DNA of 64,000 bases. Source: a virus. Location of the stretch: the IMG/VR virus record IMGVR_UViG_3300033146_000857, positions 1 through 64,000 of that record, one strand, 5' to 3'. The notes under the pieces were generated by a model. That model had not been told where the DNA came from. It did no database searches and saw only the letters and a list, made by a program, of their open reading frames with translations. Numbering within the stretch: position 1 is the first letter of the stretch; each line of letters starts with the position of its first letter. The position numbers were made by a program, and so were the translations under genes. Positions 8,715-43,508 of the stretch are shown here, piece after piece.

Positions 8715-8953
8715 TGATTAGACTATCATCTAATGATAATAATAAGTTTATCTCTGGCAAGATAGTGATAGTAAAATTAACTCTTTCTTATCTAGAAGAT
8801 AACAAAGGGTTAATGATTGACGATATAGTCAAAGTCGGCTATACCAATCAAGATACACTAATGGGCACTATAGTCAGTCGTCATTTAATAGAGGACCATG
8901 AAACCACAGATCAATTTACAATAGCTTTAACTATCAAGAAAAATGAATGTTAG
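8714..8953 (+). CDS. hypothetical protein
   Basis: Coupled ORF. Confidence 0.5.
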   Translation: MIRLSSNDNNKFISGKIVIVKLTLSYLEDNKGLMIDDIVKVGYTNQDTLMGTIVSRHLIEDHETTDQFTIALTIKKNEC

Positions 8954-9237
8954 AGTTATCTTGGGTAGAGGATGCTAGGCCTGTAGATAATTTTTTAGGC
9001 ATAAAAGAATGCTCAGAGTACATTTTGGTTTTAAACGGAACTGATGTGGGGATCTTAGAAGCCAAAATAACAGCTAGTGAAATATATATCTTTAATGTTA
9101 TGCTAGAGGCTGAATTTCAAGGACATGGTTATTTTCAAGCATGGCTTGAAGCTCAAGGTAAAAAGATAATAGCTTTTTGGCCAAAAGAGGGTGTTAAAGA
9201 ATATTGGGGCCGAGTGGCTGATGAAGTTATATTTTAA
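8947..9237 (+). CDS. minimal GNAT-like acetyltransferase
   Basis: IYIFNVML..EFQGHGY acetyl-CoA motif A, followed by ..EYW. Confidence 0.55.
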   Translation: MLELSWVEDARPVDNFLGIKECSEYILVLNGTDVGILEAKITASEIYIFNVMLEAEFQGHGYFQAWLEAQGKKIIAFWPKEGVKEYWGRVADEVIF

Positions 9238-9246
9238 AGGAATATT

Positions 9247-9645
9247 ATGCTAAATAAGATACTAAATGCTGGAGTTTTACTAGGCAGTAGAGCTTTTGAC
9301 TGTTCTGTGACTGAGAGTGACTATGACATAGGCATAACTGAAGAGAAACTAACTAGTCTTGAGCTTAAAGGTTTTACACTTATGACTGTAAAGTCAAATT
9401 ATCACCCTGAAGTATATGGAGATGACTTATCAAGACTATTTTGCTTAGTTACTCCAAATGGCGAGAGCATAGACCTGTTTGTTTTCAACTCTGCAGATTC
9501 TATACAAAAGCTTAGTAAAGCTAACGATATAATGAGAATGTTTATACCAGATATATATCACAAGGCTTTTAGAATTCATCAATGGCGTATAACTTTATAC
9601 TTAGTTGGGTTATCAAAAGAATACATATCTTATGAAGCAGATTAA
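9247..9645 (+). CDS. minimal pol-beta-family nucleotidyltransferase
   Basis: GSRA....ESDYDI motif and a third Asp in SIDLF. Confidence 0.7.
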   Translation: MLNKILNAGVLLGSRAFDCSVTESDYDIGITEEKLTSLELKGFTLMTVKSNYHPEVYGDDLSRLFCLVTPNGESIDLFVFNSADSIQKLSKANDIMRMFIPDIYHKAFRIHQWRITLYLVGLSKEYISYEAD

Positions 9646-10546
9646 AGATAAAGAGACTGGCGAGACCTTTGAAGCTTACGACTTTGGGGGTCCAGATGTT
9701 TTTCAAGTTGATAGCTATTGGATCTATGGGCAAAAAAGACTAAACTATACTGGAGTTAATAAGACTAAAAACAGTATTACTCTTAATCCTTTTAATCTTA
9801 CCATTGACCTTATGGATGACAATCCTTGGGAAGTAATAGACTATGGAAATCCAGATAGCTGTACTTGGCGAATAACTGTTAAACACCTAGGCACCGGACA
9901 AGAAATTTCTGGTGTCTATCCGTTTAATCTAGAAGGGACTGTTTATCAACTTCCTTGTGGAGGGGAAGAGTGGGTCATGGCCAGTTGTGGAGGGTTAGAG
10001 ATCTCTGAAGGGGATGGAAGTCCTATTTGCTATACTCTTGTTGGGACTGGTGAGACAATAAGACTTGTTAATTTTAGGACCTATGGCAGGAAATACATAA
10101 GGCTACTGACTCCGATGTCCTGGTCGCATGCTCCGAGGGCTGACTTTCCTGTTGAGTATCAAACTATGACTTTTCAATGGTTTGAAGATACAAATGGAGG
10201 AGTTAAGAACTGGATATTTGGTGACATTATCGTTTCTGTAGAACACGTACCAACAACAGACTATTACCCATATGAGACTACAAATGATGCCGGGCTAGCC
10301 TTGATATTGGCAAAAGCCATAGAGAGCTACCCCTTGTTTATTGAACGTTACCTTTATACAAGTTGGATTTATCTTTCACACGAAGCTTACGACTATGTTG
10401 CGGTATTCGATAATCATCACACTCCTATGACTGATGAGCTCTATGAGCATACATTTATTCTAGGCAGTTCCGTGATAGTCCAAGTGCCTAGCGGTACACC
10501 TCATGGGTTAGTTATTGCGTGGGTAAGGGCAAATAATGGTGTTTAG
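9632..10546 (+). CDS. family-2 paralog A (constant N-terminus, Cys hinge, variable C-terminus)
   Basis: Start at 9632 inferred from alignment with the 11641 copy; shares about the first 140 aa including CGGEEWVMASCGG. Confidence 0.75.
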   Translation: MKQIKDKETGETFEAYDFGGPDVFQVDSYWIYGQKRLNYTGVNKTKNSITLNPFNLTIDLMDDNPWEVIDYGNPDSCTWRITVKHLGTGQEISGVYPFNLEGTVYQLPCGGEEWVMASCGGLEISEGDGSPICYTLVGTGETIRLVNFRTYGRKYIRLLTPMSWSHAPRADFPVEYQTMTFQWFEDTNGGVKNWIFGDIIVSVEHVPTTDYYPYETTNDAGLALILAKAIESYPLFIERYLYTSWIYLSHEAYDYVAVFDNHHTPMTDELYEHTFILGSSVIVQVPSGTPHGLVIAWVRANNGV

Positions 10547-10635
10547 CCTAAAATGAACTACCAGCTGGAACTTACTAAGACCAAAGTTCCAAAGACAAAA
10601 CTCAAAATATAATATGCAAAATTAAGGAGCATTAA

Positions 10636-11622
10636 ATGAAATTAAAAATGGCATCACAGATACCCGAGGCTTTCAAGCCTAAAGAAGACTTTGAATATGA
10701 CTTTGCTAAAGCTAAGAAGTCAATAACTTTACCATTACTAAGTAAGCATGACCCAGAGACCACTATCATAGAAGAGAAATATGATGGCTCAAGATACGGA
10801 GGAGTTATTACTGATACAGTTGGAATTATTTCTAGAAATGGCATAGACAGAGCCAAGAACGTTCCCTATTTATGCAAGGTTTTAAAAGAGGTATTTCCAG
10901 CAGGCTCAATAGTTGATGGCGAGGTCGTGCATATAAATGAACCAAGACGTGTTAGATGGGAATTGGCTCGTTCAGTAATGGGTACAAAAGAGTTCAATGC
11001 TAGTGTAAAACCTGCACAATATGTTATATTTGATATTCAATACTTAGGTGGTGAATGTCTTAGAGATAAAACGCTATCTGAGAGAAGAAAGATCTTACAG
11101 AACTTGCTTGCTAGTAAGCTACCTGAAGGTTTAGTTAAACTAGAAACAACTTTAGCTACCAGTACTCTATGTATGCCAAGACAGTTTCCATTAAGCATGG
11201 GTGAAGAACTTTATGTTAGTATTCTTGCTGATAAGGGTGAAGGTATCATGATTAAGTCTGTAAATGAAAAGTATGCTAAGTCATGGACTAAGCTTAAAAA
11301 AGTGTTCACTATTGATGCTTTTATTACTGGTATCGAAAAAGGCAAAGGTAAGTTTCAAGGACTAATAGGGGCTCTAAAACTGGGCGTTATGCAAGGTGAT
11401 ACTAAGATTGATATTGGTAAGTGCTCAGGTATGACTGACGATGAGAGAAAAGAACTTACACAGATGGCCCTAGACGGTGAATTACTTCATAAAGTAGTAG
11501 AAGTTAAAGCTAATGAGGTCACTAAGAACTATAAGCTTAGACATCCAAATTTTGTTAGAGCTAGATATGACAAAGATATGTCAGAGTGTCTTAAATCACA
11601 GCTAGAAGAACATTTAAAGTAA
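10636..11622 (+). CDS. ATP-dependent DNA ligase
   Basis: EEKYDGSR, DGE, FDI, EGIMIK and LRHPNF motifs. Confidence 0.95.
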   Translation: MKLKMASQIPEAFKPKEDFEYDFAKAKKSITLPLLSKHDPETTIIEEKYDGSRYGGVITDTVGIISRNGIDRAKNVPYLCKVLKEVFPAGSIVDGEVVHINEPRRVRWELARSVMGTKEFNASVKPAQYVIFDIQYLGGECLRDKTLSERRKILQNLLASKLPEGLVKLETTLATSTLCMPRQFPLSMGEELYVSILADKGEGIMIKSVNEKYAKSWTKLKKVFTIDAFITGIEKGKGKFQGLIGALKLGVMQGDTKIDIGKCSGMTDDERKELTQMALDGELLHKVVEVKANEVTKNYKLRHPNFVRARYDKDMSECLKSQLEEHLK

Positions 11623-33990: not shown

Positions 33991-36900
33991 TTATTCATTT
34001 TTATAATTCCTATCATAAAATTGTTCAACTTTTATAGAAGTGTTCTTGTCTATATCAAGGGCCTTAAAAAAAATATTCTTATACTTAACTGATACTACTT
34101 TTATGTCTACTATTTGACCTTCTATAGAAGTACTAAAGGTACCTGTAGTATTCTCTTGACCGGCTATTTCTATAGAGGTATTATGCTTGTAAACCCTAAT
34201 CTCTGAATTAGCCTGTAGATTAGTTAGTTCAAGGACGTAAGGATTTATAAGATTAATAAGTCCTCCTCCAAGGTTACTAATTTTTGTTGCATTTGAGCCA
34301 TTAAGATTAGTCCAGTTTAATGTTCCAGAGCCTAGCCATTGAATATGTATAGTGCTTAGAGTATCAAAAGTAACATTGTCGGCTACCAAGTCTAAGTTTG
34401 TTCCAGTTAAGCTTATACAGCAAGGAGCATTAGCTCTATGAGTACCAGCAATATCATCTAGGTCTGATTGAGAAGTGACAGATATGTCAGACAGTACTCC
34501 TTTTTCAAACAGTTTAAGTTTAATATCTTGGTCTGTTATTAAGCTATTGTGCCACATACACCAATTATTATAATACCCATTAACACTGGCTACTAAGAGT
34601 ATTTGTGTGCCCCCTAAGGCCACATTAGCACCGCTTTTGCCAAAGGCTGCTGGAGACCTGGCGGGTAGAGTGATTATATTAGGAACTACATTAGCACTCT
34701 CTAATTGCTTGACCCCGTCGATAAAAGCACTGAATTCATTATTACCTCCAGAGCCATCAAACTTTAGAGTCAAATGATATATTCTATCTTGAACTAAAGA
34801 CACATCTCCATAGATTTGTAAAGTTACCGCATCACAATCTAGCTCGAATAGAATGTTATTACCAAAGCCTAGTATAAAAGCTAATGAGTTTGTTACCCCA
34901 CCTTCCCCATAGACTCTACAAGGAGGCTGCTGTATCTTGCTAGTCTTAAACCAGCCAGCAATTACTCTTTGAGTTTGATCAGAATTTGACACTGTAGTTA
35001 CTTTACCTAAGTCTACAGTGTCTGCAGTAGAACTTGAAAAGATACTTTTAGTCACTCCTGAACATAAGGCTGGTCCTGTAGCTACACAACCAGTATTTGT
35101 GCCATGGGCTGTTCCATAGTCATCAGTATAAACTCCATCAAAAGTGTATAAATGATTTGGTCCTAGAGCCTGAATTGTTTGTTTGTAGTCTAGTCCTGAG
35201 TCATTGTCTGTTATGGTTCCTGTAGCTGTGACCCCTCCGATAATAAGCGTATAAGTCTCAGTTGGCTCTGGAATAGTATCGTCTACTACCTGTACAATCA
35301 CGCTGAAAGAACTAACTCCTGATGGGACACTAAGAGTATCTAGGCTAAGGGTTACTCCGTTAGAATAGCTTACCGTTCCAATATCCGAGCCGGTAGTTTC
35401 ATTGTGAGTCAGGCTCATTAGGTATGTTTCAGTAGCTTCTGTAGCATGACTAAGGGTTACTAGATGAACTAGGTTTAAGTTCTCAAGGTTACTATCATTA
35501 CTAACAGTTGAGACCGTAGGCTTAACATAAGCGGCTATTATACTTGTGGAATAGCCTGATCCACCAATTCTTCCAGCTGCTGTCTCTACATATAGATAGA
35601 CAGTTCCAAGAGACAATGTATCTTGAATACATCTTATGTTTATTTCTGTGTCATTCCAAGTATTAACTGTTTGTTCTACTAAGATCCCAGAACTGCTAGC
35701 TTCAGCATAAGTGTTTTTATTTCCAAGCCATATCTTACCTTGAGCAGCATCAAAAGTAGTACCAGTGACCATTAGGTTACTTTCGTTGTTAAAGATATCC
35801 CCATCAGCAAAGGCTGTTGTTATTGGTTCTATGTCATCGTTTATAACAGTTCCAGTACCGTAAGTACTATCAATGTTTAGTCTAAAAGTCTCATTAGTCT
35901 CTTGAATTACATCTTGATTAATTCCTAGGGTAATACTAAAAGTTGTAACTCCATCTGGGACGTTTAAGGTTCCTACTGGACTCTCAGTCACTCCGTTTGA
36001 AAAACTAAACCCAGCGTAGTCTTCCGAGTCAAAACCAGAACTAAAGGTATTCATTGAAATAGTGTACGTTTCTACCCCTTGGGTAGCATGAGTTAGACTT
36101 ACACCAAATACTAAGCCTGTTCCTTCATTTTCTGATGGACTACTTATTGAATCAATTGTAGGTTTTACGTAGGGAAGGACTAAATTGAATTGAATGGCCT
36201 CAGCATAGGCCGATCCATTGTGACTTTCCTTACTCCAAGTTATTTTAGTGTTTGACACCAAGTCATACCTAGTTGACCTACAAGATACGTCCCAAGCTTT
36301 ATTATACTCAGAACTATTATTATGTGCCATCATATGTCCAGCATGAGCTACTGTTCTGTTTAGATCTACGGCTGTACCAAGGTTTAAATCTCCTGATGAC
36401 CCAGTGTTTCTAACTACAGCTCCTCTTTGTACTAACAGAGAACTATCTGTTATAACCTGCCAGTAATATGTATGACTACCCGAGGTATAGCCTGTAGACA
36501 CTTCTAGGTTTGTACTAGTAGTTATCCTACCTGCGGAATTACCCTCGTCCTCATATTGATCTTCTATAGTGGTATCAGACAGGACTAAAAAAGACTTTGC
36601 TGTGTCTATAGAGCTAAGAGTTATATTAGCCGGTGAGGCATCACTAGGGGTTACTCCTCTTTGAACTGTCAAAGTATTATGACTTATCGTATACCAGTGT
36701 CCCGATTGAGCCACTCCAGAAGTGTTAACATTAAAAGCTATATTAGTGGTTGTACTTAACCTAGAACTTAGGTTTACTTGCCTTGGGGCTTTTAGGCTTC
36801 CATCTGTGGTCTTTACAAAATGCCAACAGAATGAATTAGCCAATGTTAAAGCACTTAAACTTACATTTTTTGATGTGTCTGAAGTAGTGAAATCAAAAGT

Positions 36901-37179
36901 TCCTTTTTGAACAAGGACATCCGCTGCAAGTTCAATAACATAAACAACAACAATAGCTGAAACAGCACTAGCTACTCTAGAAACTTTTACACTAGGACCA
37001 GCTAGTATCTCTACATCAAAGTTACCATCTTGAGACAATTGTGTGTCGCCACCAAGGCTAGCTGACGCTGTAAAAGGAACTATTTGAGCTAGGCTAGTAA
37101 AACCAGTTAAGCTAGCTGTTTTTGTTGTCTCTGAAGTGCTTAAGTTTAATATTACCTTTTCTAGCTTAACTATATTCAT
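33991..37179 (-). CDS. large tail fibre/appendage protein with two Calx-beta/Ig-like repeats and a LamG-like domain
   Basis: Repeated YVKPT...E....L...V.L.HAT...ETY...FSNGVT...VP.GV..F...E..ET..L...GT..D.D units; GWFK...YHLTL...AFIDG. Confidence 0.75.
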   Translation of the reverse strand: MNIVKLEKVILNLSTSETTKTASLTGFTSLAQIVPFTASASLGGDTQLSQDGNFDVEILAGPSVKVSRVASAVSAIVVVYVIELAADVLVQKGTFDFTTSDTSKNVSLSALTLANSFCWHFVKTTDGSLKAPRQVNLSSRLSTTTNIAFNVNTSGVAQSGHWYTISHNTLTVQRGVTPSDASPANITLSSIDTAKSFLVLSDTTIEDQYEDEGNSAGRITTSTNLEVSTGYTSGSHTYYWQVITDSSLLVQRGAVVRNTGSSGDLNLGTAVDLNRTVAHAGHMMAHNNSSEYNKAWDVSCRSTRYDLVSNTKITWSKESHNGSAYAEAIQFNLVLPYVKPTIDSISSPSENEGTGLVFGVSLTHATQGVETYTISMNTFSSGFDSEDYAGFSFSNGVTESPVGTLNVPDGVTTFSITLGINQDVIQETNETFRLNIDSTYGTGTVINDDIEPITTAFADGDIFNNESNLMVTGTTFDAAQGKIWLGNKNTYAEASSSGILVEQTVNTWNDTEINIRCIQDTLSLGTVYLYVETAAGRIGGSGYSTSIIAAYVKPTVSTVSNDSNLENLNLVHLVTLSHATEATETYLMSLTHNETTGSDIGTVSYSNGVTLSLDTLSVPSGVSSFSVIVQVVDDTIPEPTETYTLIIGGVTATGTITDNDSGLDYKQTIQALGPNHLYTFDGVYTDDYGTAHGTNTGCVATGPALCSGVTKSIFSSSTADTVDLGKVTTVSNSDQTQRVIAGWFKTSKIQQPPCRVYGEGGVTNSLAFILGFGNNILFELDCDAVTLQIYGDVSLVQDRIYHLTLKFDGSGGNNEFSAFIDGVKQLESANVVPNIITLPARSPAAFGKSGANVALGGTQILLVASVNGYYNNWCMWHNSLITDQDIKLKLFEKGVLSDISVTSQSDLDDIAGTHRANAPCCISLTGTNLDLVADNVTFDTLSTIHIQWLGSGTLNWTNLNGSNATKISNLGGGLINLINPYVLELTNLQANSEIRVYKHNTSIEIAGQENTTGTFSTSIEGQIVDIKVVSVKYKNIFFKALDIDKNTSIKVEQFYDRNYKNE

Positions 37180-37232: not shown

Positions 37233-38627
37233 CTACAATGGGTTAGAGTAGTTTCTTTCTAAACTGGCAACCAAAGATACTGAGTTAGCATTTGATCTAC
37301 CAATAGCTGAAGTAGCTTTTACATACTGAGCTTTATCAAGCCCAATTGCTACAACTGTAATAGCAGCGTCTTGAGCTGCTGTTCTTCCACCTTGAACATT
37401 TCCATCATAGTCAAATGTAAAGGATATACTTCCAGAAGCGATAACTCCAGAGATATCAACACCGGCATTATCTTTAACAATTAGAGCATCAGAGTCACCA
37501 AAGTTATTTCCATTAGCATCTGTAAAGAACATTCTATAGACTGCTCCAGAGTCATCTACCAAGTTCTGATTGAAGTTTATAGTTCCCGCTGCCATGAATG
37601 GGAACGTTCTTTTAGTGTTAGTTGAGTCATAAAACTCGATTCTATTGATATCCGTACTTGAGAAGTCATCTATAAATACTCCTTGAGAAGTAACTAAAGT
37701 ATCACCTACGAACTTAAGTAAACTATCAGCTGTGTTACCTGAGACACTACCAGCACCTGCGTCTATATCAGAAGTCTGTCTTAGTGAATACTGTACATAT
37801 TCATAAATTTCCTCTGCAGTAGGCAAGCTACCATTGTCGGCTACATCAGCATCAATTATAACATCAAAGTCATAGCTTGAAGCTCCAATGGTTCTACTTT
37901 GAGCTGTACTGTAGTAAGTAATGTTCATGTCTGTATAAGGCAAGTTACCGGCTACAGCAACATCATTGTTTGTAATCTTAAGATCAACACTATTTTGAAG
38001 AGGAAAACGATACGCTTGGTAGTTGAACTTTGTAAGACCAATGTCTGAAAGCTGTGACTGAGCGTATTGTTTTTGATACTCACGAACGAATATTTTAAAA
38101 TAGTCACCAGTAGCTGAACTAGTTGCGTTGTCTATACCATGTCCACCACCATCTCCAAAATACTTGACGCACTGATTAACAACACCAGTTAATACTATGT
38201 TAGTAGAACTTCCATCAGCTACTTGTTGAAAGTAAACTTGATCACTACCCCCTAGAGCACCTAGAGTAATAACTCCTGCGTATTCTTCAGCTGATGAACC
38301 ATCACCATTCTTTATAGCATACCCACCATCTCTAAACAAATCTGATGTATTCTTACTAGCTGGTGCCCAGCCGTCAACAAATTCAAATTGCTCTGGTGTA
38401 ATTGCTACCATAGGGAAAGGAAATTTAATCAGATTTGCATCAGATTTCCATTCCTCTTTTAAGTATGAGTATACTGCTTGTAAACTTACACCATCTGTTG
38501 TTAATGCTCCATGTGCTGCTAAAGAAACACTTAAAGCTGTTGTGTCTATCCAGATACTCCCGTCTGTGCCTAACTGTCCTGAGGTAGAACTTCTAACTAG
38601 ACTATCTGGGTCGGTTATTTTTGACAT
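37233..38627 (-). CDS. putative abundant structural (appendage) protein
   Basis: Strong RBS, downstream hairpin; C-terminal ERNYSNP shared with neighbours (DRNYKNE, DYSYSNP). Confidence 0.6.
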   Translation of the reverse strand: MSKITDPDSLVRSSTSGQLGTDGSIWIDTTALSVSLAAHGALTTDGVSLQAVYSYLKEEWKSDANLIKFPFPMVAITPEQFEFVDGWAPASKNTSDLFRDGGYAIKNGDGSSAEEYAGVITLGALGGSDQVYFQQVADGSSTNIVLTGVVNQCVKYFGDGGGHGIDNATSSATGDYFKIFVREYQKQYAQSQLSDIGLTKFNYQAYRFPLQNSVDLKITNNDVAVAGNLPYTDMNITYYSTAQSRTIGASSYDFDVIIDADVADNGSLPTAEEIYEYVQYSLRQTSDIDAGAGSVSGNTADSLLKFVGDTLVTSQGVFIDDFSSTDINRIEFYDSTNTKRTFPFMAAGTINFNQNLVDDSGAVYRMFFTDANGNNFGDSDALIVKDNAGVDISGVIASGSISFTFDYDGNVQGGRTAAQDAAITVVAIGLDKAQYVKATSAIGRSNANSVSLVASLERNYSNPL

Positions 38628-38711: not shown

Positions 38712-39809
38712 TTAAAATGTGTAACTCAGCTTTATCAACACATGTTTATGGTCTGTTCTGTGTCCAAGAGGGCTTAAACCTGTACTTTCTAAATATTCTA
38801 GATGAACTCTTGATCTCTTATTGTATACGAAGTCTGAATAAATTTTATAAGATATCTTATCTGTCCCAAAAGAATTATAGTCATTCTCCCATAGATCTCC
38901 AAAGATAAAAGATGTATAGTCTTCGTAAGTTTTAAACTGTTCAACACCGATAGACACTTCCTGAAGCCATATCTCTGTGTAATATTTTAGGCCTATTAGA
39001 CTTGAGTAACCTGTGAGGTTATCTTTAAGAGCTGGTAAAGGTACTGTGTTATCTAGTAGTTTTCTATGGCTATACCCTAGTACTGTATAGCCAATAAAAC
39101 CTGAGTTTAAAGAGTCATCAAATGAGTAACCAAGTCCTATAAGTTCTGTTTTAAACAATTCTTTAGGTCCCCCAAAGTTAGGTATAGCTAATTTAACTTT
39201 AGTTAAAGCTTCTATGTAGTTTAGTTCAAAGAAATGCCTTCCATAGGAATATTCAAGCGCCGAGAATAGCCCTCCTGAACCGTCGAATTCATCAGATATC
39301 TTAGTCGTTCTGCCTAGAGTATCTTGGTCTACAAAGGCCTTTCCTATTTTAAACCTCAAATCTTCATAGGATATGACTATGAAGCCTCCTAGGCCTGTGG
39401 TGTCTATTAGCGTAAACAACATATTTCCTTGTATTTCGTCTGACTTTGAGTATTGCTTAAAGTTTCCTCCAGCTAGCTGTATTACTCCATAGACAAGATC
39501 AACACTAAGCTTACCTTTGGTTAAGACCCTTCCTTGTAAGTAAAGTCTGGTTAGCATTAGCTCACTTTTTTCACGACTGCCATGCATGGAATAAAGACCA
39601 GTAGCATAAGAAGAACTAGTAGTCCTAGCTTCGAAACTCCCCTTAAGACTGAGCCTACCAGCTTGTATGTCTGTATGATTTCTTAAACCTGCGGAGTAGA
39701 ACTGCTGCCCATTAAAGGCTCTATAGGCTGAGAATATCTCCGACTCTGAGGTTAATTCTGCGAATAGACTAGTATAGCCTAAGATTAAGCATATAAGTAT
39801 TTTATTCAT
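38712..39809 (-). CDS. outer-membrane beta-barrel protein
   Basis: Signal peptide ending SLFA, amphipathic strands and the C-terminal Bam signal IKLSYTF. Confidence 0.75.
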   Translation of the reverse strand: MNKILICLILGYTSLFAELTSESEIFSAYRAFNGQQFYSAGLRNHTDIQAGRLSLKGSFEARTTSSSYATGLYSMHGSREKSELMLTRLYLQGRVLTKGKLSVDLVYGVIQLAGGNFKQYSKSDEIQGNMLFTLIDTTGLGGFIVISYEDLRFKIGKAFVDQDTLGRTTKISDEFDGSGGLFSALEYSYGRHFFELNYIEALTKVKLAIPNFGGPKELFKTELIGLGYSFDDSLNSGFIGYTVLGYSHRKLLDNTVPLPALKDNLTGYSSLIGLKYYTEIWLQEVSIGVEQFKTYEDYTSFIFGDLWENDYNSFGTDKISYKIYSDFVYNKRSRVHLEYLESTGLSPLGHRTDHKHVLIKLSYTF

Positions 39810-39815
39810 CTCTTT

Positions 39816-40064
39816 TTACCTCATTTTTCTGTTATTAGTATTTTTGGCTAAGTCTTTTAGCTCTTCTAGGTATAATTCTAGTTCTATACTATTAAGTTCT
39901 ATAGAATATGTCTGTCTTTTTGAAGGACTTGATAGTACCCTTGCCCAACCTAAGTAGGTTTTGCTACCTAGATCAAGCCCTTCTAGGGCTAGCCTTTCTT
40001 TAATAGCTGTTACTCCTGAAGCGTTACAGAAAGTTAACAGTATGATTATAAACAGCTTTTTCAA
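39816..40064 (-). CDS. small exported protein
   Basis: TTG start with AGGAG RBS; MKKLFIIILLTFCNA signal peptide. Confidence 0.65.
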   Translation of the reverse strand: MKKLFIIILLTFCNASGVTAIKERLALEGLDLGSKTYLGWARVLSSPSKRQTYSIELNSIELELYLEELKDLAKNTNNRKMR

Positions 40065-40065
40065 C

Positions 40066-41355
40066 TTAACTCCTTTTTACAGGTATTATAATACTGACTA
40101 CAGTACCAGTAATACTAGTCTTGATTATATTTATGTCTCCGCCTATAGAAGTTACTAAATGTTTATTCAAATACATCCCATTACCTCTGGTTATCATAGA
40201 ACCACTTTCTTTTGTACTATAGTTTGGCTCAAATATTTTATCTACTATATCTTCTTTTATACCATTACCATTGTCCTCTAGGTTAAAGGTTAGGTACCTA
40301 CCTCGCAGGCTAACAAAGATTATCTTTATGTCCGTAGCACACGCTTCAAGAGAATTTTTCAAATGGTTAATTAAAATACTTCTTAAACCACTAGCCCTTA
40401 GATCCTTGCTGTCTAGGTCGAACACTTTGAGTCTTTCGTCTACTGAATATTTAAAAAGATTATTAGAAATAGCTACCATGCCAAAAGAGTCCGTTACTGA
40501 GTCATAGACATTTTTTGCTCCACTGTTTAGTCTAATCTGTTTAAACTTACGCATTTTGCCAAGAACTCCGAAGATTTGATCTATGGATAATTTTATAAAC
40601 TCAAAGTCTTTTTCTAAACCTACAAGTTTTTTATTAAGCGCTAGTCTGTCGGCTGATAAGGGTCTAAAACCATTCTCTTTGTCTTCTAAGATTAGGTATC
40701 TATTTATTAGTCTGTGTATTTTTTCTATTTTGTTTTCGACTACTTCTATGGGCGTGTTCATTTCATGATGAGCATGCTCTGTCATTAAAGATATAGACTT
40801 GTTGTTTAATAGAGCCTCAGACCCAGATAGTTGGACTAAAAGTTCCAATCTTTCTTTTTCAAAAGCACTTCTCATTACTCTTAGAAAGATAAAAAATACA
40901 AAGACTGAAACTATAGCATACATATAGAACAGGTTTATAAGATAGTTTGTAAAAGTTAGCCTAAAGAAAATATGCTTATCAGTTTTGTTAAAATCATCTA
41001 TTTGGATTAATATACTATTTTGGTTGTAGTAGAGTCCATCGGTTATTCTTAGAAGGTCTATTTTTCCTAGGTTAATTGGTCTAAGTACACTAGCTACATT
41101 TCTATACCTAGCTATCATCTTTCCACTCTTACGGTCTATGATTAACACTTCTTCACAGTCAACTAGTCTACATAGGTATTCTATGTCAACTATTTCAAAC
41201 TCATAGGAGTAATCCTGTAGTTGTTTTATTGCAAATAGACTATAAGAGTATATAGTATTACCTATGTTAAGAATAAAGGTTAGAAATAGTAATGTTGCTA
41301 CACTGAGCAAGGCTTTAAGGTGCTTTCTAAACAGCCATCTTAGGTAATCTTTCAT
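40066..41355 (-). CDS. membrane sensor histidine kinase
   Basis: Two hydrophobic segments around an extracytoplasmic domain; H box HHEMNTP, N box NHLKNSLEA, EDNGNGI, IFEPNYSTK and RGNGMY. Confidence 0.92.
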   Translation of the reverse strand: MKDYLRWLFRKHLKALLSVATLLFLTFILNIGNTIYSYSLFAIKQLQDYSYEFEIVDIEYLCRLVDCEEVLIIDRKSGKMIARYRNVASVLRPINLGKIDLLRITDGLYYNQNSILIQIDDFNKTDKHIFFRLTFTNYLINLFYMYAIVSVFVFFIFLRVMRSAFEKERLELLVQLSGSEALLNNKSISLMTEHAHHEMNTPIEVVENKIEKIHRLINRYLILEDKENGFRPLSADRLALNKKLVGLEKDFEFIKLSIDQIFGVLGKMRKFKQIRLNSGAKNVYDSVTDSFGMVAISNNLFKYSVDERLKVFDLDSKDLRASGLRSILINHLKNSLEACATDIKIIFVSLRGRYLTFNLEDNGNGIKEDIVDKIFEPNYSTKESGSMITRGNGMYLNKHLVTSIGGDINIIKTSITGTVVSIIIPVKRS

Positions 41356-41359
41356 AAAT

Positions 41360-41938
41360 TTAGTCTTTGAACAGAGTTGCGTGTATGTAGGCTCTTCTAG
41401 GATCCATGGTTATTTCTGTTTTGTAAAGAACCTTGTCCTCTAGATTAAGCTTTGTCACCTGGTTATACTGGTCTATAATATTTTTTATAGGATTAATTGG
41501 ATCACTGATAAGATTTCCAGTATAAAAGAAATACTTAACTAGTGGGTTAATCTCATGTAGTACCTCAAAAACGTCCATGCCTGTAAGTCTGATGTTACCC
41601 TCTGGGGTTAGGATGCTTCCACCAAGTGTTAGATCTATTATAGCATAGTCTATGTTTAAATCAGCATGCTCTTTAACTAGGGTTAAAAATTCATACACTG
41701 CGTGTTCTCCAACGAAAGATAATATATTATACTTTGATTCATCCATGTCATAGTCTTCAAAAATAGTCTCTAGGTCATCTTCTAAAAAAGAGACTATGCC
41801 TGCATTATCGTCTATCAAGAGTATAGTTTTGTTATTAAAGTCAAAATCACTAGGTAACTCTCTAGTATATTCTAAGTCTGATGGCCTTAGGCTTTCATCG
41901 CCTAGTTTAAACACTAGGTCTAAAGGTGATAGTTTCAT
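41360..41938 (-). CDS. single-domain response-regulator receiver
   Basis: LLIDD acidic pair, AIIDLTL phospho-Asp, TGMDV, FYTG and conserved Lys (LYK); no output domain. Confidence 0.85.
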   Translation of the reverse strand: MKLSPLDLVFKLGDESLRPSDLEYTRELPSDFDFNNKTILLIDDNAGIVSFLEDDLETIFEDYDMDESKYNILSFVGEHAVYEFLTLVKEHADLNIDYAIIDLTLGGSILTPEGNIRLTGMDVFEVLHEINPLVKYFFYTGNLISDPINPIKNIIDQYNQVTKLNLEDKVLYKTEITMDPRRAYIHATLFKD

Positions 41939-42447
41939 TTTGGGACTCCTAAAAGAATATTCATGACTGTAAGTAGTGTTGGCCCAGCCAGTACTAACAC
42001 GATGCTCACACAGACTGTTATTACTGTGATAAACAATAGCTTAGAACTAGTGATTAAAGCATACACTTTACCAAAACTTGGTAAAGACTTTTTCTTTGGT
42101 TTTAAGAGCTGTTCAAGCATTTCTTTAGTAAGGCTAAGATCTGAGCTAGTGGTTTTTCTAGCTTCTAGATCTTTGATCAACTTGTCCATTAAAGCTCTTT
42201 TTGTTTCTATGATCTCTTTTAGAGTATCATACACTAAGTCTCTAAAATGGCTATTCTTAGTTTCTAGCTTGTCATTTATAGCCACAATAAACTGAATAAT
42301 TTCTTTCTGTTCAGAATGGTCACTCATAAGGGCCATTAATGCTTTATGAAAGGTAGCTTGATCAGACCTACCAAGTTTACTCATTTGAACGTCTAAAGTT
42401 TTTAGGGCACTAGATAGTCTAACATCTAGTTGTTGAAGTTCTTTCAT
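41935..42447 (-). CDS. coiled-coil protein with C-terminal membrane anchor
   Basis: Helical cytoplasmic part and hydrophobic C-terminus; ATGA overlaps on both sides. Confidence 0.65.
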   Translation of the reverse strand: MKELQQLDVRLSSALKTLDVQMSKLGRSDQATFHKALMALMSDHSEQKEIIQFIVAINDKLETKNSHFRDLVYDTLKEIIETKRALMDKLIKDLEARKTTSSDLSLTKEMLEQLLKPKKKSLPSFGKVYALITSSKLLFITVITVCVSIVLVLAGPTLLTVMNILLGVPK

Positions 42448-43061
42448 ATTTGTACCTTAGCACTTTTTTGATATCTTCTGCTCATTGCTTTGTCTGAAAA
42501 CCAGAATGAAATTACTGTAGAAGCTGCAAATAGTATCAGTTGTAAAGCTGGTTTAATCACGGCTAACATTAAGTTCTCTGTTCCAAAGTCGTCAAGTAGG
42601 TATTCCTCTAGGGCTGTATCTATAATTACCATTACATACCATACTATGCCTATTGTAAGCACAGGTCTTATAAGACCTCTTATAGCGTCCATAGCCAGTA
42701 AGTGTAAGTAGATTAAAGGTCTAAATACTAGCCCTATCTTAGTTTTATCACTTATCATCATCTTAACTACATCGTCTTTAAGGTACTTGCCAGTTAGTCT
42801 CTCTATAAGTCCTGCTCTATTAGTAGCTTCAGCTGTGTCTGCTGCTGCTTCCTCTAGGCTTATGGCTCCTTCAGTTATTACTTTATCAACTTCTATTTGA
42901 GCTTTTATTTCATTTAAGTTAGCTTCACTTTCGGCTTTGAACTTCTTTAGTTCAAACTCGTTCTGTTCTTTCTGTTGTTTATAGCCGAACCAAGTGGCAA
43001 AAATAGAAGTAACTGATCCTAAAAGGCCTCCACTTAGTATGTTAGTAAAAAAGTCCATCAC
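42444..43061 (-). CDS. putative holin (3TM GTA-holin-like)
   Basis: N-terminal hydrophobic helix, coiled coil, IRPVLT-TM and TM-SFWFS.K; follows the putative endolysin. Confidence 0.6.
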   Translation of the reverse strand: MMDFFTNILSGGLLGSVTSIFATWFGYKQQKEQNEFELKKFKAESEANLNEIKAQIEVDKVITEGAISLEEAAADTAEATNRAGLIERLTGKYLKDDVVKMMISDKTKIGLVFRPLIYLHLLAMDAIRGLIRPVLTIGIVWYVMVIIDTALEEYLLDDFGTENLMLAVIKPALQLILFAASTVISFWFSDKAMSRRYQKSAKVQI

Positions 43062-43067
43062 ATCCCC

Positions 43068-43508
43068 TTATATGTTTGATATTATGAGCTTAAATGGCTC
43101 ATTTTTTGTTAGTTTATTCATCTCTCTTATTGCTTGTCTACTTCTAAACACGCATCTTTGCATTTTTCCGTGTTTGTTTTTAGCTCTTCCAATAGCTTTA
43201 CCTAGAGTTATACACCCCTGTAGGTGCGTCTGCCACCCAAGCTTAGCGTCTCCTGCAAAGTTAGCCCCGTGAATAAGTATAAAACTTCTTTTAGACACTT
43301 CTTGTATATGGTATAACTTTTTCTTAAAGTGCGGAGAATATCTTAATTTTACGTGGTACTCTCCAGTAGGAATACAACTTAGGTTAGGCTTATTGTCTCT
43401 ATCTGGTAGTTCTAATGAATTCCAAAACATACCATTGTTAGCCAGTATACCAAAAGTCCCCTCTTGAGTACTTTGTAGTCTATATAAGTATAACGTTTTC
43501 ATACACAC
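43068..43508 (-). CDS. DUF5675-family protein, putative endolysin
   Basis: TFGIL, SLELP, SCIPTGEY, SPHF, ILIHGAN and GCITLG motifs (His/Cys pair as in L,D-transpeptidase-like folds). Confidence 0.8.
   Translation of the reverse strand: MCMKTLYLYRLQSTQEGTFGILANNGMFWNSLELPDRDNKPNLSCIPTGEYHVKLRYSPHFKKKLYHIQEVSKRSFILIHGANFAGDAKLGWQTHLQGCITLGKAIGRAKNKHGKMQRCVFRSRQAIREMNKLTKNEPFKLIISNI

Follow-up and report, generated by a model that had tools for sequence, protein, structure and literature searches.

The timing of phage lysis is thought to run on holin clocks and a few known add-ons. In the case of T4 lysis inhibition, which involves the holin T and the antiholins RI and RIII, a periplasmic cue shifts holin firing via small inner-membrane phage proteins. 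Signalling genes have also been reported from phages, and the Clostridioides phage phiCDHM1 carries agrB, agrD and agrC (PMC7790227). Single CheY-like genes are listed as auxiliary genes in Alteromonas phage V22, while complete virus-specific two-component systems are described neither in the literature nor in the deposited phage genomes that were searched. Here we describe a block of seven genes (g1-g7; positions 38712-43508, minus strand) in a window of 64,000 nucleotides, the whole stretch of DNA analysed, which represents the first 64 kb of the 96,471-bp viral record IMGVR_UViG_3300033146_000857 (G000; direct terminal repeats, rated complete). The block is one tightly coupled operon and a fusion of two independently moving modules, a lysis-type pair (g1-g2, module A) and a mobile signalling cassette (g3-g7, module B) composed of a tail-anchored protein, a stand-alone receiver, a membrane histidine kinase, an exported protein and an outer-membrane barrel. 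No paper describing this cassette was found in the literature searched.

In regard to the organization of the block, the first-pass annotation of the window had proposed seven co-oriented and tightly coupled genes, and all of them were found in place when the junctions were read base by base. ATGA overlaps occur at the g2/g3 and g3/g4 junctions, and the remaining junctions show gaps of 6, 4, 1 and 6 nucleotides, of which the g1/g2 gap would be 9 nucleotides if g2 begins at the ATG used by its homologues. Module A occupies 43068-43508 and 42444-43061, and module B 38712-42447. The pair g1-g2 is absent beside other cassettes and recurs alone elsewhere, and the seven-gene block is therefore a fusion of the two modules. 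A conserved seven-gene unit was rejected, as modules A and B each occur without the other.

The kinase g5 (40066..41355, minus strand; 429 residues) is of the HisKA type, with membrane helices at residues 13-31 and 139-157 that, according to hydropathy, flank an extracytoplasmic sensor domain, a periplasmic loop of about 107 residues, followed by the DHp and CA domains. The Pfam model HATPase_c matched it with an E-value of 9e-13 and 49 bits (cut-off 26), no match of the Pfam HisKA model was reported, and the profile of the kinase family aligns to HK853 across both DHp and CA. The H, N, G1, F and G2 boxes read in the initial annotation are retained, being invariant or nearly so among 35 homologues. 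In the H box HHEMNTP (residues 196-202), H197 and E198 are invariant and P202 is kept in at least 90% of sequences; N330, N334, D361, G391 and G393 are likewise invariant, and G363, G365 and F375 are kept in at least 90%. The predicted autophosphorylation site, His197, is encoded by the CAT codon at 40765..40767 on the minus strand. A conserved L-C-x4-C pair in the periplasmic loop (Cys62 and Cys67; window positions 41155-41172) suggests a disulfide or a redox-sensitive element.

The receiver g4 (41360..41938, minus strand; 192 residues) stands alone, carrying an N-terminal extension and a beta-hairpin insert after the phospho-accepting aspartate. It is divergent and lies below the Pfam threshold: there was no Pfam match at an E-value of 0.1, and PF00072 searched over the whole genome gave nothing at an E-value of 1. 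A profile search against PDB gave in-register receiver matches that were weak (E-value about 0.4). The AlphaFold model, built from an alignment of eight sequences, has a (beta-alpha)5 flavodoxin-like receiver fold with a predicted local distance difference test (pLDDT) score of 87, and its top Foldseek matches are Spo0F, RcsB, PorX, CheY and similar receivers, with template modelling scores by target of 0.6-0.75. The fold is CheY-like, and the DD/D/T/K signature proposed for this protein held in the alignments. D43, D44, D102, T140 and K173 are all invariant in the eight-sequence alignment; across 129 diverse members of the family D44 and D102 do not vary and D43 and K173 are kept in at least 90%, and T140 is kept in at least 90% of a 31-member alignment. 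Asp102, the predicted phosphorylation site, is encoded by the GAT codon at 41633..41635 on the minus strand. Particular to the family are the insert of about nine residues after Asp102 and the lack of a proline after Lys173. In most homologues the N-terminal extension holds a CxxC...C...C pattern, possibly a zinc ribbon (L003-L060, alignment A4), and the window receiver and its closest relative are without these cysteines. Judged by the residues retained in both proteins, the kinase/receiver pair looks catalytically intact.

The distribution of module B is that of a mobile, virus-only cassette, as far as sequence searches can tell. The receiver profile retrieved 346 cluster representatives from metagenomes among 1.84 billion proteins, and several of the records bearing the cassette are phages of 125-222 kb, so that the cassette is widespread among large uncultured phages. 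The order g3-receiver-kinase is near-constant in about 40 distinct loci from viral and metagenomic collections, and g3 lies directly upstream of the receiver in nearly all of them. The exported protein and the barrel follow the kinase in roughly half of the loci, about half are without both, and in two (L028 and L030) the exported protein is present and the barrel absent. BLAST found no similarity between the flanks of the other loci and the window, and apart from a few sub-lineages these flanks share little similarity among themselves. It was thus the core of the proposed synteny that recurred in unrelated phages, namely g3, receiver and kinase, then exported protein and barrel, but not the seven-gene arrangement as such. 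Among one genome per species of 185,579 bacterial species, a single match was found, on a 5.8-kb contig of a binned Guaymas metagenome-assembled genome that is identical to a metagenome contig. The possibility that the genes belong to a host chromosomal operon, which the first-pass annotation had named as grounds for abandoning its interpretation, was rejected on this result. Neither receiver nor kinase had a match in 50,697 GenBank phages, a blastn search of GenBank phages with the block as query was likewise negative, and a single-protein scan of viral contigs for the kinase returned nothing. A known anti-phage defence system was also rejected, since PADLOC yielded only two marginal matches (E-values 0.001-0.006).

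Some of the loci show variations of their own. An extra gene of about 200 codons lies between receiver and kinase in three of them (L008:8916-9512, L016:8483-9094 and L026:1492-2094); its product has a helix at each end and no family match, and these cassettes are without the exported protein and the barrel. In L010 the barrel gene is split into two open reading frames of 129 and 244 codons (10052-11185), likely by a frameshift or in a decaying copy. A ParB-like partition protein is encoded near the cassette of a 105-kb record (L013:10561-11484), a hint of possible persistence as plasmid prophages among some carriers.

The first gene of the cassette, g3 (41935..42447, minus strand), encodes a tail-anchored protein of 170 residues. 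According to hydropathy, a helical or coiled-coil domain (residues 1-135) is followed by one membrane helix (137-155) and a short tail. Because a Lys-rich stretch precedes the C-terminal helix, the long domain should face the cytoplasm, where the receiver is. In the alignment of 36 family members no column is invariant, and F53, N58, D59 and K83 are kept in at least 90% of sequences. No match was found in Pfam, PHROG, PADLOC or PDB, and the Atlas search gave sub-threshold leads only. The co-fold of the receiver with g3(1-135) scored 0.00, which was counted neither for nor against binding. In layout, g3 resembles the lysis accessory protein XhlA of PBSX (PF10779), which likewise has a cytoplasmic coiled coil and one C-terminal membrane helix and whose gene lies near holin-like genes, but g3 has twice its length and a conserved F-x4-N-D motif of its own. 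Membership in this family was rejected, as the XhlA profile matched neither g3 (whole genome, E-value 10) nor its homologues; in 15 related records it picked up coiled-coil noise only, away from the cassette. The pair g3/g6 was also considered as spanins and rejected: the helix of g3 is C-terminal, after the Lys-rich stretch, where that of an i-spanin is N-terminal and its coiled coil periplasmic, and the Cys of g6 is not conserved as the lipobox of an o-spanin would require.

The last two genes of the cassette relate to its input side. The exported protein g6 (39816..40064, minus strand; 82 residues, TTG start) begins with a hydrophobic signal-like helix and is predicted to be exported through Sec, leaving a mature part of about 60 residues. 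K35, G39, W40 and R42 are invariant in the family of 20 sequences, and since the Cys after the signal peptide is not conserved among them, the protein is not a lipoprotein. Profile searches of g3 and g6 against PDB gave nothing meaningful. For g7 (38712..39809, minus strand; 365 residues), which has a signal peptide, AlphaFold predicted an outer-membrane, porin-type barrel of 16 antiparallel strands (pLDDT 81, predicted template modelling score 0.81). Foldseek matched it to OmpM1, Omp36, MOMP, PorB and AlgE at E-values of about 1e-11 to 1e-10, the C-terminal Phe is invariant in the family, and its Atlas neighbours by feature and structure are porins such as Porin_O_P, Porin_4 and OprB; no named Pfam porin family matched. 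Wherever the exported protein is present (19 cassettes), the kinase has a periplasmic loop of 92-115 residues, and the kinases with loops below 90 residues are, in nine cases out of nine, without both the exported protein and the barrel. This association of the exported protein with loop length (Fisher p 4e-4, in lineages that are not independent) ties g6 and g7, at the level of sequence, to the sensor domain of the kinase.

Module A, which in the window precedes the cassette, consists of g1 and g2. The product of g1 (43068..43508, minus strand; 146 residues; phrog_1501) belongs to DUF5675 (PF18925; E-value 6e-25, 87.8 bits, cut-off 26.7), a C82/YkuD-like peptidase and putative endolysin, with a further weak match to Tlde1 in Pfam and nothing meaningful in the profile search against PDB. 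Its His80 and Cys99 sit in 'IHG...QGCITLG', which we take to be the layout of YkuD/C82-type cysteine peptidases. In a 2026 preprint, DUF5675 is placed among the C82 peptidases, and one protein of this kind appears there as a candidate lysin. The product of g2 (42444..43061, minus strand; 205 residues) has a Gly-rich hydrophobic N-terminus, a charged coiled region, two to three C-terminal helices and a basic tail, as judged by hydropathy. Its start is more likely the ATG at 43058 than the GTG at 43061, given that the homologues begin MDF... and the database copy has 204 residues. Its 'holin-like' label was borne out by topology and position, that is, by the membrane helices, the charged C-terminal tail and the adjoining endolysin candidate, but not by assignment to a characterised holin family, for its only family is phrog_6637, which has no annotated function and for which 28 clusters of homologues were found.

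The same pair, without signalling genes, is present in five other viral contigs, four of which (L064-L066 and L068) have g2 always after a DUF5675 gene, while the fifth (L067) ends inside g2. It also occurs in 11 Vibrio phages, for example as ORF73/ORF74 of vB_VhaS_R21Y, which are cultured VHS1-like siphophages. There, the counterparts of the two genes, at about 40% identity to g1 and 24-28% to g2, are likewise adjacent, at the end of the tail module, but they are followed by an AAA ATPase and replication genes and not by a signalling cassette. In the complete 96-kb genome of the window phage, seven classical endolysin families (among them lysozyme, Amidase_2, Amidase_3, SLT, M15_3 and M15_4) gave no match, and g1 and g2 are the sole endolysin and holin candidates found. 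Taken together, the DUF5675 cysteine peptidase as endolysin and g2 as holin are the probable lysis pair of this phage, and the case for DUF5675 and its membrane partner acting as such a pair would be strengthened.

Whether the cassette is linked to lysis was approached by searching whole records for six to eight lysis families. In the window, the start of the cassette overlaps the stop of g2 (ATGA). The cassette of G002/L004 is immediately preceded by the only M15_4 and M15_3 peptidases of the record, and that of G014/L016 by the only M15_4 endolysin together with a membrane protein of 84 residues. In G012/G013 (L014/L015), the same position is held by a GH108 lysozyme and a holin of the gene transfer agent (GTA) type. 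The cassette therefore adjoins lysis genes, unrelated to one another, in four of the five independent lineages with any recognisable lysis gene, and the chance of such adjacency is estimated at about 2-5% per lineage. Two details of the neighbourhoods can be added. In L004, the M15_3 peptidase (8835-9320, minus strand) is encoded opposite to the M15_4 endolysin and the cassette, in the interval between them. In two other loci (L044:4478-5023 and L018:3136-3681), a 181-residue 'hydrolase' (phrog_3668, no Pfam match) is encoded directly upstream and co-oriented, and it may be a cell-wall enzyme.

Module B could tentatively be understood as a phosphorelay that senses the envelope and works through protein contacts at the inner membrane, with the timing of lysis as its probable output, a reading we prefer without holding it firmly. 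According to this model, the periplasmic domain of the inner-membrane kinase would read a cue involving the exported 60-residue g6 and the phage-made porin g7. The kinase would autophosphorylate His197, and the phosphate would pass to Asp102 of the output-less receiver. As the receiver has no output domain, it would work through contacts with other proteins, on the cytoplasmic side of the inner membrane. It might act on the holin candidate or on g3, and its most likely target or scaffold would be the cytoplasmic domain of the invariably co-encoded g3. The most probable end effect would be the delay or the trigger of holin-dependent lysis, as a functional analogue of T4 lysis inhibition. The steps from the cue to phosphorylation rest on the conserved catalytic anatomy, while the contact, the choice of g3 as target and the effect on lysis are what we infer from it.

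Several observations weigh against such a model. In one lineage, that of G011 and G015, 24 kb (G011) and 17 kb (G015) separate the GH108 endolysin from the cassette. The largest group of loci has the cassette on the plus strand, as an island between replication genes of the minus strand, among them those for an AAA ATPase (phrog_4339), an exonuclease, a nuclease, a guanylate kinase, DNA polymerase and DnaB. None of the other cassettes has a homologue of g1 or g2 beside it. In most records with a cassette no lysis gene was recognised, so that the adjacency statistic rests on few lineages. Furthermore, g2 has no characterised holin family, with no Pfam holin matching it and no similarity to the GTA holin of L015, and g3 could serve the kinase as an accessory regulator instead of being the target of the receiver. 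We thus read the association of the cassette with lysis, as seen in sequence, as real but not obligatory, and the sample is small. The lysis link drawn in the first-pass annotation stood for the four lineages in which the cassette lies behind unrelated lysis genes, and fell for the islands among replication genes and for the distant endolysins. Likewise, its overall interpretation, a circuit that senses the envelope and times lysis, finds support in the intact pair, in the virus-only occurrence and in the recurrent adjacency, and is weakened because the adjacency is not general and the seven-gene synteny is absent.

The same observations lend themselves to another reading, in which the cassette senses the envelope and its output is not lysis but, for example, superinfection exclusion, envelope remodelling or host takeover; adjacency to lysis genes would then reflect the tolerance of module boundaries and accessory regions for insertions. 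The autonomous opposite-strand islands inside replication modules, which most copies are, would fit well with this, as would the endolysins far away in G011 and G015 and the movement of the cassette among phages without detectable homology of the flanks. In addition, a phage porin and an exported protein alter the cell surface, which is typical of exclusion genes. On the other hand, random placement predicts less adjacency than the four lineages show with their three unrelated sets of lysis genes, the cassette is translationally coupled to g2 in the window, and PADLOC gave no match beyond the marginal ones. The complete 96-kb genome gave no match for a tyrosine integrase, and a prophage-type exclusion role is less likely for the window phage for that reason. 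We regard an output other than lysis as doubtful, and as less probable than the envelope-sensing phosphorelay acting on lysis timing.

More specific scenarios for the cue and for the partners of the relay can be weighed against that phosphorelay as well. In its fullest form, the cassette would be a self-contained virus-encoded sensing loop for Gram-negative hosts, with its own signal or co-sensor, porin, kinase, receiver and tail-anchored effector, which would monitor the envelope for superinfection, infections nearby or damage and set the moment of lysis. We consider this unlikely in its entirety, and it would, if true, stand as the phosphorelay equivalent of T4 lysis inhibition or arbitrium-type communication. 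Somewhat more unlikely is communication between phages, in which the exported 60-residue protein would be diffusible, the porin its passage, and the kinase a gauge of its concentration, so that infected cells are counted before lysis. An exported protein, a barrel and a long periplasmic sensor domain do co-occur, g6 is a non-lipoprotein with a conserved K-x-x-x-G-W-x-R core as expected of a ligand, and the barrel of g7 is a general-porin-like channel. However, a folded protein of 60 residues is large for a 16-strand porin, and about half of the cassettes do without the exported protein and the barrel, and two more, L028 and L030, lack the barrel only. Phages with genes for signal production are nevertheless known, phiCDHM1 with its agrB, agrD and agrC being an example (PMC7790227). 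The least probable of these scenarios, in our opinion, is interference with host signalling, where the phage kinase and receiver would cross-talk with host systems, for instance with the receiver as a phosphate sink that silences an envelope-stress response. The kinase retains the H-E-x-x-N/T motif of bifunctional kinase/phosphatases, the receiver is without an output domain, and bacteria are known to use single-domain receivers as phosphate sinks. Yet receiver and kinase are always co-encoded and very divergent from cellular ones, which fits an insulated cognate pair better than mimicry, and the fixed partner g3 would be left unexplained.

In regard to the remaining parts of the genome, the operon is flanked by tail genes (43571 onward) on one side and by fibre-like genes (37233-38627 and 33991-37179) on the other. 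The plus strand of the window phage holds replication genes (primase, helicase, family-A polymerase and an SbcC-like protein), and the minus strand holds tail genes, including an open reading frame of 3,813 codons and a tail assembly protein. No tRNA genes that might hint at the host were found in the window.

The analysis defines three new protein families, namely the tail-anchored partner, the exported protein and the divergent receiver. As the cassette is compact and its phospho-site residues are clear, the sensing of the infected cell's envelope by a virus, and the use made of it, becomes directly testable. Among described systems, the classical HisKA-type ones with single-domain receivers (HK853-RR468, Spo0F, CheY, DivK and CpdR) share with the cassette the DHp and CA core, the H, N, G1, F and G2 boxes and a (beta-alpha)5 receiver with DD, D, T and K, whose output must be by protein contact. 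They differ from it in that the cassette is encoded by viruses only, its receiver lies below the threshold of Pfam Response_reg, and this receiver is locked to a tail-anchored partner, often together with an exported protein and a porin. The closest functional analogy may be T4 lysis inhibition, where the likeness is one of concept, the signalling genes of the cassette lying directly behind holin and endolysin genes in four lineages. No relation in sequence or fold was found between the two, the cassette would use His-Asp phosphotransfer, and its proposed link to lysis does not extend to every lineage. As a precedent for signalling genes carried by a phage, the agr set of phiCDHM1 comes closest, in that a membrane histidine kinase is likewise accompanied by genes for an exported signal (PMC7790227). 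There, however, the genes are host-derived, no receiver is present and the host is Gram-positive, whereas the cassette described here has both kinase and receiver, is virus-specific, and comes with an outer-membrane porin.

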